Sequence record: PQ330092
Origin: Escherichia phage JP4
DNA: 64,000 bases
Direction: 5' to 3' (one strand)
Within the stretch, counting starts at the first letter, position 1. Each line of letters starts with the position of its first letter. Below, in pieces: positions 28,440-46,753 of the stretch. A program made the translations under genes and the position numbers. The notes under the pieces are model-generated. The model was given only the letters and a program-made list of their open reading frames with translations, was not told where the DNA came from and searched no databases.

Positions 28440-28499
28440 TTGCACCGTACTGATAAAAGCGTATAATGTTTTACATCGAGAGCGGGAACACTTCCCGCT
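28440..28499 (+). promoter_or_regulatory. early promoter (TTGCAC-N16-TATAAT) + 5-prime UTR hairpin AGCGGGAACACTTCCCGCT
   Basis: Consensus hexamers preceded by AAAGTACT; perfect inverted repeat starts ~12 nt after -10. Confidence 0.6.
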
Positions 28500-28522
28500 A
28501 CACATTAAGAGAGATTAAAACG

Positions 28523-28885
28523 ATGGCGACTCAAATCAATAAAATCATGCTTAACCTGGTAAACTTCCGCGAAGAGATGAAAGGTCTTCCGGCTGAAACT
28601 GTAAAAATTCACATTGCAGCTTATCGGGAACTTATTGCAATGTTGCCGCTTAAGCGTGAACAATACGCCGCTACTTTGATGCTTGATTCAATGATCCATA
28701 TAATGATCTCAAATGATTTAACGATGGTTTATCAGTACATGGGCGAAAATTTCGCGGTGTGTAGTAAGCCAGTACCAGGGATGGCAACTACTGAGGAATT
28801 GCACGGTTTAAATTTAAAGCAAGATGCATGGGATAATATGCCTCGTTTCCTGGTATGGGCTGACAGTGGCAAAATTTACAAATAA
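28523..28885 (+). CDS. hypothetical early protein (120 aa)
   Basis: ATG after AAGAGAG RBS downstream of promoter+hairpin; longer ORF (28466) starts inside the promoter. Confidence 0.65.
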   Translation: MATQINKIMLNLVNFREEMKGLPAETVKIHIAAYRELIAMLPLKREQYAATLMLDSMIHIMISNDLTMVYQYMGENFAVCSKPVPGMATTEELHGLNLKQDAWDNMPRFLVWADSGKIYK

Positions 28886-28899
28886 GTTTAATAAAGTAC

Positions 28900-28958
28900 T
28901 TGCAAACTAAGTTTAAAAGCGTATAATGTTTTACATCAGGTGGGGAATAGTTCCCCAC
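28900..28958 (+). promoter_or_regulatory. early promoter (TTGCAA-N16-TATAAT) + 5-prime UTR hairpin GTGGGGAATAGTTCCCCAC
   Basis: Same module architecture as other early genes. Confidence 0.6.
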
Positions 28959-28977
28959 TATATAAGAGGATTAAAAA

Positions 28978-29217
28978 ATGGCTAAATCAAAAATGTTCTT
29001 AGGTCACAAAAACAAAACTCATTGGAATGTAAGCCTTTGGATTAATAACGATGAATCATTATACCGGTTGGCCCAGGACTTTATTAACGATAGCACTAAT
29101 CGCAATGATGCGGCCCGTCATATGATGTTATTTTTAGAACAGACTGGACAAGATAAAACACCGGACGGATTCAAATATAGCACTACTGCGATCCGTGCGG
29201 CGATGGTTGGAATGTAA
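28978..29217 (+). CDS. hypothetical early protein (79 aa)
   Basis: Promoter+hairpin+AGAGGA RBS. Confidence 0.7.
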   Translation: MAKSKMFLGHKNKTHWNVSLWINNDESLYRLAQDFINDSTNRNDAARHMMLFLEQTGQDKTPDGFKYSTTAIRAAMVGM

Positions 29218-29305
29218 TAGAATAGAATTTATTTAAAGTACTATTGCACGCTGATAGTACTTTATAATAGTGTTTTATTCATACACCAACGATAAGGGCA
29301 ACAGC

Positions 29306-29572
29306 ATGAATATTAAGTATTTTGCGACGCGTGAACAAGCTCGGATCGCCGCACGCCAGGACGGGGCAACGTTTAAAGATATGGGCGTACAATCGGAACG
29401 TGGTAAACGTTGGGCCATTGTAAAGCGTAGTACCGCCAGATCATTACAGTACTGGTTAGCGGCCTTAAAAAGTCCCGATAGTGTATCGCGTCGAGTGGTA
29501 GAAATAAAGCTCGACCGAAAGGGCAACCGCGTGACCGTGTACCGTACTAAAAAGATTGCAGTACTTGAATAA
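29306..29572 (+). CDS. hypothetical early protein (88 aa), paralog of 41251..41646
   Basis: Start at MNIKYFATRE after AAGGG RBS; shares FYATRExAR...TFKDMG...RWA...DRKGNRVTVY with 41251 gene. Confidence 0.65.
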   Translation: MNIKYFATREQARIAARQDGATFKDMGVQSERGKRWAIVKRSTARSLQYWLAALKSPDSVSRRVVEIKLDRKGNRVTVYRTKKIAVLE

Positions 29573-29579
29573 AAAGTAC

Positions 29580-29638
29580 TTGCAAACTATGTTTAAAGGC
29601 GTATAATGTTTTACATCGAGAGCGGGAACTCTTCCCGC
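29580..29638 (+). promoter_or_regulatory. early promoter (TTGCAA-N16-TATAAT) + 5-prime UTR hairpin
   Basis: Consensus hexamers; AGCGGGAACTCTTCCCGC inverted repeat. Confidence 0.6.
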
Positions 29639-29659
29639 CTATAACCTGGAGTAATAAAA

Positions 29660-29890
29660 ATGACTAATATGTATATGACTGAAGTTAAAACCGTAAAAGA
29701 TACTACCACGAATAAAACTACTTACTTACAGCGGATCTGTGGTGTATGGCAACGTATCAGCAAATCAAAGTACTTTAAATTAACATCATATGCCAATCGT
29801 TCGGATTCATTCAGTACTGAAATAAAAGGTAATAAAGTACACCAATACGGCACTTATTATTATTATAGCCTGGACGCGATTGTAGTATAA
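29660..29890 (+). CDS. hypothetical early protein (76 aa)
   Basis: Promoter+hairpin+GGAG RBS. Confidence 0.7.
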   Translation: MTNMYMTEVKTVKDTTTNKTTYLQRICGVWQRISKSKYFKLTSYANRSDSFSTEIKGNKVHQYGTYYYYSLDAIVV

Positions 29891-30175
29891 GTAGTTTACA
29901 AATCTTTACAATTGCCAGTATTGACTTATTTTGTCAGTACTGGCATAATGTATTCATTGGCAGATAAGCCGTAGCCCATAGGGTGCGGAAGTGTATCTAT
30001 AGAAAAAGTAGTTTAGTACAGTTACAATTGTGCACCCGGTGGGTTAGCTGTTGTCATGGGGTATATTATACCAGTACTGGATAGTGCTGTCAATACTTTT
30101 TTTTTACTATTCAGTACTGAAAACTATTTTTAAAAAGTACTTGCAAACTATGTTTAAAGGCGTATAATGTTTTAC

Positions 30176-30254
30176 ATCAGGACGGGGAACGAAATAAGTA
30201 ACTTCCCGTTAAGTAGCCCAGGAGTAAGGCACACGAAAAACTCCCCTGATAAAA
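30176..30254 (+). ncRNA. conserved ~80-nt structured leader/sRNA-like element (copy A) between tandem promoters
   Basis: Starts CAGGACGGGGAAC just after a consensus promoter, ends ACGAAAAACTCCCCTGATAAAA, followed by a second promoter; ~85% identical to element at 40057 with compensatory changes. Confidence 0.45.
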
Positions 30255-44782: not shown

Positions 44783-44858
44783 AAGTTTTATTTCAGTACT
44801 ATTGACATAGCTTGATAGTACTGATGTAATAACTTTACTAACTACAAGGGGAAACATA

Positions 44859-45116
44859 ATGGAACAGTTCACACAATATCGGGTAAATCCTCAAGCGATG
44901 GCCTACGTAGAAGACCATAAAACGTTACCAGTACTAACACCAATTAAAGGCCATATCTATCGTGCAATGTCGTGGTGTACGGCCCAGGATGGCTATAAAA
45001 CCGTAGCCGTTGGTATGTATTGCGGTAATGGTGAATGGTTTGATCCAAATAATCCGGTAGCCATTGACAGTACTGAAAAAATGAAATGGGCCGACTACAT
45101 CGAAGATATTTCATAA
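44859..45116 (+). CDS. hypothetical early protein (85 aa)
   Basis: Promoter TTGACA..TGTAAT; GGGGAAA RBS. Confidence 0.65.
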   Translation: MEQFTQYRVNPQAMAYVEDHKTLPVLTPIKGHIYRAMSWCTAQDGYKTVAVGMYCGNGEWFDPNNPVAIDSTEKMKWADYIEDIS

Positions 45117-45205
45117 AACTATTTGACAGTACTAACCAGTAATGTATAATGTTTTACATAGAGCGGGGGAATAGTTCTCCCGCCAATAGTTTGGAGTAAA
45201 ATATT

Positions 45206-45406
45206 ATGTCTATCGCTCTCGCCCTGGTTGAAGTACTGAAAGAAGCTAAAGCCAACCTTATCGATGTACAGATTAAGGAATTGCAAAACGGCTTAATCGG
45301 CTGTACTTGTACCGCTGGCGGTGCGGCAGACTATCGAGAACACGAATCACTCGAATCACTGGTTCGGTATCTTACCATGATCGTTGATGATTGGAGAATC
45401 ATCTAA
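45206..45406 (+). CDS. hypothetical early protein (66 aa)
   Basis: Promoter TTGACA..TATAAT+hairpin+GGAG RBS. Confidence 0.7.
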   Translation: MSIALALVEVLKEAKANLIDVQIKELQNGLIGCTCTAGGAADYREHESLESLVRYLTMIVDDWRII

Positions 45407-45424
45407 CAAAAAAGAATAAAAAAA

Positions 45425-45457
45425 GGGATTGACTCCGGTCAGTCCCTTTGCTATTAT
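45425..45457 (+). promoter_or_regulatory. dual terminator/promoter element (fourth early-region copy)
   Basis: GGGATTGACTCCGGTCAGTCCC hairpin, T-run, TATTAT; followed by AGCCCACAGGGTGCATAGGTGTATC. Confidence 0.55.
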
Positions 45458-45651
45458 ATACGCATAGACAAAAACTAGCCCACAGGGTGCATAGGTGTAT
45501 CTAAAATATATAGTTAATAACGGTGAGTAACTATCTGCTGGTGGAACTAAAACTATTAATAAAAAAGTATTGACAAAGTATATCAGTACTGCGATAATGT
45601 ATCTCGTAGGGCGGCAATGGTGCGACGGCCCACAAAGTTAGGAGCTTCAAA

Positions 45652-45984
45652 ATGACTACTTCAATCGCTATCGTTAAAGCTTTCATCCGTACCAATGTTT
45701 CTTCTGTATTCATCGACGGTATGGATCGGGAAGTAGAATACTCAATCATTATCGCACAGACTGCAAACGGTGCTCGGTATATCCTTAATGATAGTGAAGC
45801 AAATCACTACTACTTCACTAAAGCCACTGGCTTTAAACGCATCGATGCTGATGTAGTATACGCTAAGATGAATAAGCTGGTAGACAAGATTAACGCTAAA
45901 GGCACTATTGATTTACAGTACTGGACCGAAACCGATCCAGAATATGGATCTCACCGCTACCTGAATCCAGGAATTAAAATGTAA
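45652..45984 (+). CDS. hypothetical early protein (110 aa)
   Basis: Promoter TTGACA..CGATAAT; AGGAG RBS. Confidence 0.7.
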   Translation: MTTSIAIVKAFIRTNVSSVFIDGMDREVEYSIIIAQTANGARYILNDSEANHYYFTKATGFKRIDADVVYAKMNKLVDKINAKGTIDLQYWTETDPEYGSHRYLNPGIKM

Positions 45985-46073
45985 AAAGTACTTGCATAGT
46001 ACTTAGATTCATGTATAATGTTTTACATAGAGAGGGGGAAATGGTTCTCCCTCCTAAATTAAGGAGTTTTATC

Positions 46074-46475
46074 ATGACCTTCTCAATCACTTCCTTCGCT
46101 GACGTTTTAGTACTGGCTCGGACTTTTGGTAAAGATGCACTGGAGTACGCTGTAAGTAATGGCACTATCCAACCGGAACAGTGCCGCATCATTGGAAACT
46201 GCAAACGTTGGGCGGTATCCAATACTATTGCACTGGAAAACTTCCACGATGGCAACAATGAATATTCTGTTGATGTAGTATTCGAAGCCGTTGATCTCGG
46301 CGGTATCTATAATACTAACCTGAATGATGTGCGTATCGTTCGCACGGGGTTCGGTGCTTATGATGTATCTATTCGTGAAGCTATGAACACCGGATACATT
46401 AGCAAGGACTTACTTGCTCACATCATGCAGCTGTGTACGGAACGTAACGAAGCACGCACAATCTTAGGACTGTAA
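46074..46475 (+). CDS. hypothetical early protein (133 aa)
   Basis: Start at MTFSITSF after AAGGAG RBS; promoter+hairpin GAGGGGGAAATGGTTCTCCCTC. Confidence 0.65.
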   Translation: MTFSITSFADVLVLARTFGKDALEYAVSNGTIQPEQCRIIGNCKRWAVSNTIALENFHDGNNEYSVDVVFEAVDLGGIYNTNLNDVRIVRTGFGAYDVSIREAMNTGYISKDLLAHIMQLCTERNEARTILGL

Positions 46476-46500
46476 GCGTTACACATCACCAAACATCATA

Positions 46501-46522
46501 GGCCGCTCTCTAGCGGCCTTAA
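46501..46522 (+). terminator. possible terminator hairpin GGCCGCTCTCTAGCGGCC
   Basis: Perfect 7-bp GC stem; weak T-tract. Confidence 0.4.
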
Positions 46523-46543
46523 CTATATCAGGAGTACATACAC

Positions 46544-46753
46544 ATGATCTATACAGTATACAGCGTCCTAGGCACTATTGCAGGCGTACATGATAACGTC
46601 GATAGTGCTATGCGTACAGTACTGCAACAGGTTCCACTAAAGCCTAAGACCATTAAGCAGATGACAGCACGACTAACCAGGGCGACCGATGGCGTGGAAG
46701 TATGGCAGGACTACGGGGATACACAGATAATCGTTAGCGTAACGAAGGATTAA
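46544..46753 (+). CDS. hypothetical protein (69 aa), last gene of repeat unit
   Basis: AGGAG RBS. Confidence 0.6.
   Translation: MIYTVYSVLGTIAGVHDNVDSAMRTVLQQVPLKPKTIKQMTARLTRATDGVEVWQDYGDTQIIVSVTKD

Follow-up and report, generated by a model that had tools for sequence, protein, structure and literature searches.

A one-strand array of promoter-driven small genes, many with a predicted leader hairpin, in the terminal repeat of Escherichia phage JP4

What is the function of a region in which near-perfect host-type promoters follow one another on a single strand, in front of about fifty very small genes, many of them with a G-rich inverted repeat between promoter and gene? Such a region is found in a 64,000-nucleotide stretch of Escherichia phage JP4 (sequence record PQ330092), which was analysed as a whole and is referred to here as the window. 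The window comes from a jumbo coliphage of the 121Q/PBECO4/G17 group (genus Asteriusvirus), a Rak2-like phage with up to 96-97% identity to other members of the group, and it contains a perfect direct repeat with a period of 20,114 bp, the two copies of which (A and B) show 0 mismatches. We propose with moderate confidence, as the best overall explanation, that this direct terminal repeat (DTR) is an array of small expression modules with a leader hairpin, which are shuffled in the manner of the promoter-early stem-loops (PeSLs) described in T4-like phages. The architecture of the modules and their PeSL-like nature appear very likely.

The boundaries of the repeat are defined by comparison with relatives. 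Base 26792 of the window corresponds to base 1 of three phage genomes that start with the terminal repeat, namely fEgEco12, vB_Ec-M-J and E9.1. The termini of fEgEco12 were determined experimentally, and its DTR of 20,993 bp is confirmed by restriction digests (PMC13070987). The vB_Ec-M-J record annotates 'Direct Terminal Repeats' at 1-21525, and the junction between unique DNA and repeat is uninterrupted in E9.1, at ~347.7 kb. Because of these base-1 alignments and the E9.1 junction, copy A is read as the right repeat and copy B as the left repeat, joined end-to-start. The tandem layout would then reflect the joining of the end of the linear record to its start, with no duplication within the virion DNA.

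Copy A contains 36 near-consensus sigma70 sites on the + strand and 5 on the - strand (at most 1 mismatch over the 12 hexamer positions), compared with 1 such site in the unique left 26.8 kb of the window. An earlier reading of this DNA from its letters alone (the sequence-only reading) had described dense promoters of this kind recurring roughly every 300-400 bp. The density is confirmed, the array is biased to one strand, and the median spacing of 441 bp is close to that range. A position weight matrix (PWM) made from the promoter sites, with the consensus aAAAAAGTAcTTGcaA-16-TATAATgTTTTACATcaA, gives 30 matches on the + strand of copy A, 0 in unique DNA (1-26791) and 0.06 in first-order Markov random sequence. 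The sole - strand match at the same thresholds, at 30093, has a 17-nt spacer and a score of 11.6, versus 14.8-54.2 for the 30 + strand sites. A loose promoter scan shows only modest enrichment (109 versus 67 +/- 10), the signal being carried by near-perfect matches. Spacers of both 16 and 17 nt occur, as had been claimed, but the 16-nt spacer dominates (29 of 36 sites) and the hairpins described below are restricted to it, following 21 of these 29 promoters and 0 of the 7 with a 17-nt spacer. Several of the promoters without a hairpin belong to another class, AGTACTATTGACA..GATAGTACTGGCATAAT, in which the spacer is 17 nt and the -10 is extended by TGn, and at least five promoters have no open reading frame (ORF) to drive.

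The modules share a common order of parts. The stop codon of the previous gene lies in an A-rich stretch ending AGTAC (consensus aAAAAAGTAc upstream of the -35), within the start of the cassette, as in ..gaaTAAaaagtacTTGCAA, an arrangement that was read directly at individual loci. The promoter follows (TTGCAA or TTGACA, 16 nt, TATAAT), then a conserved start region gTTTTACAT, the hairpin (behind about two thirds of the promoters with a 16-nt spacer), a Shine-Dalgarno sequence and the small gene. The conserved cassette is ~100 nt long.

A simple gene call gives ~50 + strand genes per copy between 28.4 and 46.8 kb, in line with the ~51 of the sequence-only reading and with the 53-56 coding sequences in the equivalent repeat of annotated relatives. 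The median product is 78 aa long; 38 genes encode fewer than 100 aa and only 9 fewer than 60 aa, so that the 'many' genes below 60 aa of that reading are not borne out. A near-consensus promoter lies within 130 nt upstream of 31 of the ~50 genes (~60%), and 21-23 of the ~50 (~44%) have a G-rich leader hairpin. Taken as a whole, the promoter-hairpin gene array is real and far beyond chance, and the statement that 'nearly each' gene carries the full pattern was too strong.

The hairpins behind the 21 near-consensus sites have a G-rich stem of 6-9 bp and a loop of 3-8 nt, and start 8-14 nt after the -10. A 22nd lies behind a weaker promoter at 38547 (TTGCAT-17-TATAGT), where the stem starts at 38586, ~11 nt past TATAGT. 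Predicted stem energies range from -11 to -16 kcal/mol. The hairpin had been called invariant, but there are 18 distinct sequences among the 21 per copy; what is held constant is its position. The distance from -10 to stem has a standard deviation of 1.6 nt and that from stem end to ATG is 19.7 +/- 2.1 nt, and because both are tight the cassette behaves as one unit.

To compare hairpins with different arms, we used a covariance model (R1) built from 22 gap-free examples, as a plain MAFFT alignment of 54 unique leaders, which differ in loop and stem length, misaligned the arms. The model was searched against the window and eight loci of related phages, and every match up to E = 0.01 is on the coding strand and inside a terminal-repeat region; there was no match in 1-26791 of the window, nor in the 48 kb beyond the fEgEco12 DTR, where 13 consensus-like + strand promoter sites are present and 0 are followed by a G-rich hairpin. 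Among the 41 distinct sequences matched, 99.1% of the cells pair and 6 of the 8 pairs are changed on both sides. None of 500 shuffles reaches the observed values of pairing and covariation, and shifting the partner by 1-3 columns abolishes the signal. Cassettes of the same kind with different stems are found in Klebsiella, Erwinia and Yersinia jumbo phages, and the arms of these stems, although wholly different, remain complementary: GGGGATACA/TGTATCCCT and GGGAATGAA/TTCATTCCC in Klebsiella phage RaK2, GGGGAGAG/CTCTCCCC and GGGAAGAG/CTCTTCCC in Erwinia phage Hallingskeid, and GGGTAAGC/GCTTACCC in Yersinia phage fHe-Yen9-03. Conservation across genera is seen at the base of the stem (GGG/CCC) but not in the upper stem, the loop sequence or the loop length. 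An Rfam scan of 26000-47500 returned only three chance-level matches (E = 0.15-0.76).

The strand on which the structure matters can be judged from imperfect pairs. In 53 unique hairpins, all 11 interior non-Watson-Crick positions place a G of the 5' arm against a T of the 3' arm; read as + strand RNA they are G-U pairs, and the opposite strand would have A-C mismatches there. We note that the polarity of the stem (G then C) had been considered as strand evidence and was dropped, because the reverse complement has the identical polarity, so that the strand argument rests on the G-U pairs. These observations indicate that selection acts on the hairpin as a coding-strand structure, and the covariation together with mismatches that are exclusively G-U supports the earlier idea that it acts in the transcript.

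The same data bear on the possibility that the inverted repeat acts in DNA, as an operator for a repressor dimer, as a cruciform or as a hairpin promoter of the N4 type. The early promoters of N4 have 3-nt loops, and such loops are common here; a perfect palindrome just downstream of the -10 is also at the classic position of an operator. However, half-site sequences are not conserved although their complementarity is kept, the spacing of the half-sites varies by up to 5 bp, and mismatches that are all G-T on one strand, with no A-C, are unexpected for recognition of double-stranded DNA. Relatives are moreover reported to depend on host RNA polymerase and phage sigma factors (PMC7318152, PMC5259590). 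We consider an action in DNA very unlikely, and the operator and the N4-type promoter were rejected on these grounds; the variable loop length and the non-conserved half-sites speak against an operator in double-stranded DNA.

The hairpin is also tied to promoters. Within the gene array, all + strand GGG...CCC hairpins that lack a T-run and lie outside the AAAGGGATTGAC composites (described below) start 8-14 nt after a -10, and genes without a promoter have no hairpin. The left end of the repeat, which is non-coding, contains one further GGG...CCC hairpin, at 27741, and this one lacks a promoter. With a transcription start assumed at the 8th nucleotide after the -10, the predicted leaders are 39-49 nt long and the unpaired 5' tail before the hairpin is 1-7 nt (median 5); under the same assumption the tail is ~3 nt in the RaK2 and Erwinia versions. 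In the whole leader the hairpin folds with a mean predicted probability of 0.89, and the Shine-Dalgarno region is mostly unpaired.

We suggest that host RNA polymerase would transcribe the modules right after DNA entry, from both genome ends, and that in every mRNA started at these promoters the hairpin would fold within a few nucleotides of the 5' end. In this position it would most likely shield the leader from 5'-end-dependent decay (RNase E / RppH), and it would probably insulate the ribosome-binding site from the following coding sequence. The conserved cassette of ~100 nt could double as recombination homology, so that genes would be shuffled as in PeSLs. A role of the hairpin as a stabiliser or insulator of the mRNA is the one that we tentatively favour.

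Several points weigh against this interpretation. The likeliest starts would give the coliphage cassettes a 5' tail of 5-7 unpaired nt, and Emory, Bouvet and Belasco are said to have found in 1992 that protection by an ompA-type hairpin is weaker past ~4 unpaired nucleotides. Ten genes with equally good promoters have no hairpin. The alignment used for covariation was fitted to the model, which favours structure, and many of the cassettes are paralogs of one another; about three independent events probably lie behind the G-U pairs, which are supportive rather than decisive. Since start-site or expression data for this phage group were not found in the literature searched, the words 'early' and '5'-proximal' stand here for what we infer. 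Finally, the authors of the PeSL studies read their stem-loops as terminators or attenuators, and in a reporter test one RB49 stem-loop cut the expression of lacZ to the same extent as the rrnB T1 terminator did (PMC2839356).

According to this last view, the JP4 hairpins would attenuate or terminate read-through from upstream and so prevent expression from building up along the tandem promoters. With 36 promoters on the same strand and ~8 canonical terminators, read-through should indeed be frequent, and the stems are G+C-rich, with the predicted energies given above. However, an intrinsic terminator combines a G+C-rich stem with a U-tract, and a T-run follows 0 of the 22 cassette hairpins (the tails are ACTA.., GGTAA.., CTAAC.. 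and similar); a terminator scan picks other elements, and the region has separate canonical terminators that do end in T-runs. The cassettes at 31666, 33285, 36004 and 43294 directly follow such terminators and retain their hairpins. A fixed place downstream of the -10 would be needless for terminating an upstream transcript, and the stem-loops of RB49/phi1 and PST/nt-1 lie within or upstream of the promoter, unlike here. The lack of a hairpin at genes without their own promoter also speaks against attenuation, which we regard as unlikely.

The hairpin might instead be a tag by which a phage or host RNA-binding protein or nuclease recognizes early mRNAs, so that the early class could be shut off on time, processed or controlled in translation, much as by T4 RegB or RegA. 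The conserved stem bottom with a covarying remainder would suit such a tag, as would the restriction of the hairpin to one promoter class that is confined to the terminal repeat. In addition, many 5' arms contain GGAG, which is the target motif of RegB. On the other hand, many stems lack GGAG (GCGGGAA, GGGGAAA, GGGGATACA), neither the loop nor the upper stem is conserved, the analysis yielded no candidate protein, and the cassette is also present in a Vequintavirinae genome (see below), where the cognate factor would be needed too. A tag of this type seems to us improbable to about the same degree as attenuation. In a broader version, the leader hairpin would constitute a cis-regulatory RNA family of its own, without an Rfam entry, which marks one class of early terminal-repeat transcripts across the Rak2-like phages of Escherichia, Klebsiella, Erwinia and Yersinia. 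A phage or host factor would read the hairpin and so set the lifetime or translation of this early class, and hairpin and promoter together would form a portable expression unit moving small genes between the unrelated Asteriusvirus and Vequintavirinae. We consider this version doubtful, and return to the array of small expression modules as the explanation to be preferred.

For the recombination part of this explanation, copy A was compared with four relatives (vB_Ec-M-J, fEgEco12, G17 and UE-S1). Of 33 distinct homology breakpoints, 15 fall within cassettes, compared with 6.1 expected (p = 3e-4; cassettes make up 18% of the sequence). Chained alignments show that whole gene bodies are replaced or deleted between relatives. 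The left edges of these bodies lie at +59..+90 from a -35, which is in the hairpin, the ribosome site or the start codon, and the right edges at -5..-30 from the next -35. The repeat is a mosaic among 95%-identical phages, and where close relatives differ by the replacement, gain or loss of a gene, the breaks lie at the modules. Escherichia phage A5-4 (OP744025.1), an unrelated 145-kb coliphage of the Vequintavirinae, has three such cassettes, hairpin included, with ~90% identity at 9004, 9321 and 13374, in a small-gene region. This case suggests that cassette-plus-gene modules move between unrelated phage families.

Table 1 Features of the terminal repeat in the JP4 window (window positions; empty cells, nothing recorded).
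Feature	Position	Strand	Gene	Hairpin	Remarks
DTR copy A, right-end copy	26792..46905	+			20,114 bp, identical to 46906-64000+
DTR copy B, left-end copy	46906..64000, runs past window end	+			same cassettes at +20,114
Non-coding left end of repeat	26792..28425	.			one promoter 27157; two CCCA..GGGTGC motif copies; read directly
Cassette	28440..28522	+	28523-28885 (120 aa)	28481-28499	AGCGGGAA cac TTCCCGCT
Cassette	28900..28977	+	28978-29217 (79 aa)	28939-28959	
Cassette	29580..29659	+	29660-29890 (76 aa)	29622-29638	
Cassette	30943..31022	+	31023-31187 (54 aa)	30984-31002	gene body replaced in relatives, edges at cassettes
Cassette	31198..31275	+	31276-31497	31238-31257	one G-U pair
Cassette	31666..31739	+	31740-31976	31702-31720	downstream of terminator 31502
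Cassette	31982..32060	+	32061-32360 (99 aa)	32024-32040	signal-peptide-like N-terminus; fEgEco12 homologue annotated 'spackle'
Cassette	33285..33367	+	33368-33595	33325-33346	two G-U pairs; downstream of terminator 33104; ~245-nt module insertion inside in relatives
Cassette	33604..33680	+	33681-33893	33644-33663	GGGGAGAA atga TTCTCCCC; gene body swapped in relatives
Cassette	35188..35266	+	35267-35413 (48 aa)	35228-35247	
Cassette	35417..35494	+	35495-35647 (50 aa)	35457-35476	served as BLAST query
Cassette	36004..36082	+	36083-36424	36045-36063	
Cassette	36439..36520	+	36521-36733	36479-36498	
Cassette, weaker promoter	38547..38621	+	38622-38810	38586-38604	TTGCAT-17-TATAGT
Cassette	39168..39244	+	39245-39457	39208-39227	
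Cassette	40748..40831	+	40832-41155	40790-40808	
Cassette	43294..43373	+	43374-43595	43335-43354	
Cassette	43599..43679	+	43680-43952	43639-43657	right edge of 2.75-kb block replaced in three relatives
Cassette	44148..44226	+	44227-44490	44188-44208	
Cassette	44483..44557	+	44558-44782	44521-44539	
Cassette	45123..45205	+	45206-45406	45163-45183	
Cassette	45992..46073	+	46074-46475	46032-46053	
Ten promoters without G-rich hairpin	span 30259..45598	+	each before a gene		promoter scans; -35 starts 30259, 32449, 33913, 36753, 37015, 38130, 40138, 40409, 41178, 45570
Swapped or deleted gene bodies, examples	31013-31179, 33683-33883, 38810-39160, 40201-40396, 40838-43594				last is the 2.75-kb block
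Canonical intrinsic terminator	31502..31524	+			stem + T-run
Other canonical terminators	32378-32399, 33104-33125, 41669-41687	+			
Terminator-promoter composite	39895..39930	+			AAAGGGATTGACtccgGTCAGTCCCTTTgcTATTAT; stem encloses next promoter's -35
Other composites	35875-35910, 43164-43199, 45422-45457	+			
DksA/TraR C4 zinc-finger protein		+	37865-38122		Pfam above curated cut-off
GNAT acetyltransferase		+	38187-38543		Pfam above curated cut-off
CCCA..GGGTGC units	29975, 35937, 37595, 39952, 43226, 45479	+			
CCCA..GGGTGC units	31575, 30043, 27892, tenth near 28100 (approximate)	-			related 28044-28063

The products of the array fall into 46 PHROG families and are almost all small proteins without known function. 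Only the DksA/TraR and GNAT genes exceed a curated Pfam cut-off, and there is additionally one weak kinase-like match. BLASTP confirms the two paralog pairs noticed in the sequence-only reading, 29306/41251 (E = 8e-18) and 33985/40832 (E = 2e-25). The three-member 'MAII family' of that reading is reduced to at most a weak pair, 33681/36817 (30% over 47 aa), and the gene at 33368 is not related to them by BLASTP. That reading had also likened the locus to host-takeover early regions. The location in the DTR, the host sigma70-type promoters and the small products without known function agree with this description, in which the word 'early' keeps the status given above.

Other elements accompany the cassettes. 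In the terminator-promoter composites, the stem AAAGGGATTGAC tccg GTCAGTCCCTTT holds the next -35, and the T-run serves as the spacer before TATTAT; homologous composites are present in RaK2 and in the Erwinia and Yersinia phages. At 30141-30258 and 40022-40137, a longer hairpin (ACGGGGAAC..11-13 nt loop..TTCCCGT) and a possible second stem, CAGGAG..CTCCCCTG, lie behind a full-strength promoter; there is no credible ORF, and another promoter comes directly downstream. Such an element might be a small RNA or the leader of a tandem promoter. A convergent pair is found at 29921-30093, where the + strand promoter at 29921 faces a perfect - strand TTGACA-17-TATAAT with TGn at 30093. Each of the two drives one unit of the type described next, and therefore their short transcripts would overlap as a sense/antisense pair.

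Each repeat contains ~10 short promoter-driven units without an ORF that carry CCCA..GGGTGC. A unit consists of a small hairpin with a covarying stem and a purine-rich loop (GCGAAA / GAGAAA / AGAUAA), followed by the invariant core RRCCC-NNN-GGGTGC and, in most copies, TGTATCTAT. There are ~45 distinct copies in E. coli, Klebsiella, Erwinia and Yersinia phages, and a scan of the repeat gave no Rfam match for them. RNAalifold found only the invariant 3-bp core stem and missed the covarying upstream hairpin, which is visible by eye. The units may represent a small-RNA family that is not yet described, or else a site in the DNA at which a phage factor acts. In the relative PA5oct, two highly transcribed noncoding RNAs are reported from the terminal repeat (PMC7318152).

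The palindrome AGTACT is strongly over-represented, in coding and non-coding DNA alike, with 133 occurrences in copy A versus 6.5 expected (20-fold) and 105 versus 9.0 expected (~12-fold) in unique DNA (1-26791). Within the promoters its positions are fixed (aAGTACTTGCAA and cAGTACTgTATAAT). The excess extends across the clade, being 9- to 22-fold in fEgEco12, RaK2, Erwinia Hallingskeid and Yersinia fHe-Yen9-03, with none in A5-4, and the literature searched holds no mention of it in these phages. The first 1.6 kb of the DTR, which is non-coding, contains the short direct repeats GGCTAAACGGCTAGA / GGATGGCT at 27590-27700, and this end (26792-28425) may be linked to the genome end, in packaging or replication. 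Parts of the repeat match 13 records labelled as Campylobacter phages at 80-90% identity, which could be shared modules or mislabelled records. No tRNAs were found in the window.

The jumbo phages of this clade have hundreds of genes without known function, and their terminal repeat is present in two copies per genome. By analogy with SPO1 and T5, this repeat probably holds the earliest-expressed genes. Describing ~50 of its small genes as mostly promoter-driven modules provides a candidate list of host-takeover or anti-defence proteins together with their exact regulatory parts. The cassette itself, which places promoter, hairpin and ribosome site within ~100 nt, is a compact natural part with a structure conserved across genera.

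How does this array compare with known systems? The Bacillus phage SPO1 carries a host-takeover module in its 13-kb terminal redundancy, and T5 and BF23 carry pre-early genes in their long terminal repeats. We know of no fixed leader hairpin described for these terminal-repeat modules. They resemble the JP4 repeat, as a long DTR with many very small early genes, strong host-type promoters and ribosome-binding sites, and two copies per genome; they differ from it in that there is no sequence relationship and, here, no evidence for a two-step DNA entry. The terminal repeats of BF23 have been described (PMC10644984).

Stabilising hairpins at the 5' end are a second point of comparison. Examples are the ompA leader and the T7 phi10 leader (GGGAGACCACAACGGUUUCCC), which is used in pET vectors. 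As in JP4, a short G/C-rich hairpin near the 5' end is followed by an unstructured A/U-rich stretch with the Shine-Dalgarno sequence, and the T7 leader shares the GGGAGA...UUUCCC flavour. In these leaders the hairpin lies within 0-4 nt of the 5' end, compared with the tail of 1-7 nt (median 5) predicted for JP4.

Promoters have also been reported in CBB, a Rak2-like phage, where 18 are RpoD-like, with UP-like elements, and 3 of the 18 lie in the repeat (PMC5259590), and in PA5oct, where 32 are sigma70-like (PMC7318152). These phages belong to the same clade as JP4 and use the same promoter type, concentrated among short hypothetical genes beside or inside the terminal repeat. Unlike here, far fewer promoters were reported, and no leader hairpin, cassette structure or shuffling was described. 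The RaK2 paper makes no mention of promoters or hairpins, and the Asteriusvirus genome papers searched use the word 'promoter' at most once each. The leader hairpin is so far undescribed for these phages.

The nearest parallel is the PeSL, known from the T4-like phages RB49/phi1, PST/T4 and nt-1/KVP40 (Arbiol et al. 2010, PMC2839356; Comeau et al. 2014, PMC4122927). In a PeSL, an AT-rich stretch with the stop codon of the upstream gene is combined with a near-perfect sigma70 promoter, a stem-loop of the G(n)-loop-C(n) type, and a Shine-Dalgarno sequence with a start codon; PeSLs flank ORFans in hyperplastic regions and mediate modular shuffling (PMC2839356, PMC4122927). Cassettes of promoter plus stem-loop, including their role in recombination, are therefore an already described class, which the sequence-only reading had overlooked. 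JP4 has the same composite intergenic parts, small genes without known function in a hyperplastic region, and indels or replacements of genes between close relatives that break at the cassettes.

There are also differences. In JP4 the stem-loop is always 8-14 nt downstream of the -10, and because of this constant position it is in the transcript of its own promoter, whereas in PeSLs it is mostly between or over the hexamers or upstream, as in RB49/phi1 and PST/nt-1 (PMC2839356, PMC4122927). The four terminator-promoter composites of JP4, with a stem-loop between -35 and -10, do have the classic PeSL arrangement. No U-tract follows the cassette hairpin here, and separate terminators are present; the spacer is 16 nt, compared with 17 in PeSLs, and AGTACT stands at fixed promoter positions. 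The JP4 array fills a 20-kb DTR of Rak2-like jumbo phages, which are only distant relatives of T4 through their portal and capsid proteins (PMC5259590), whereas PeSLs lie in internal regions of T4-like genomes. The breakpoint pattern thus extends the idea of PeSLs as recombination cassettes from T4-like to jumbo phages, and to exchange between phage families.

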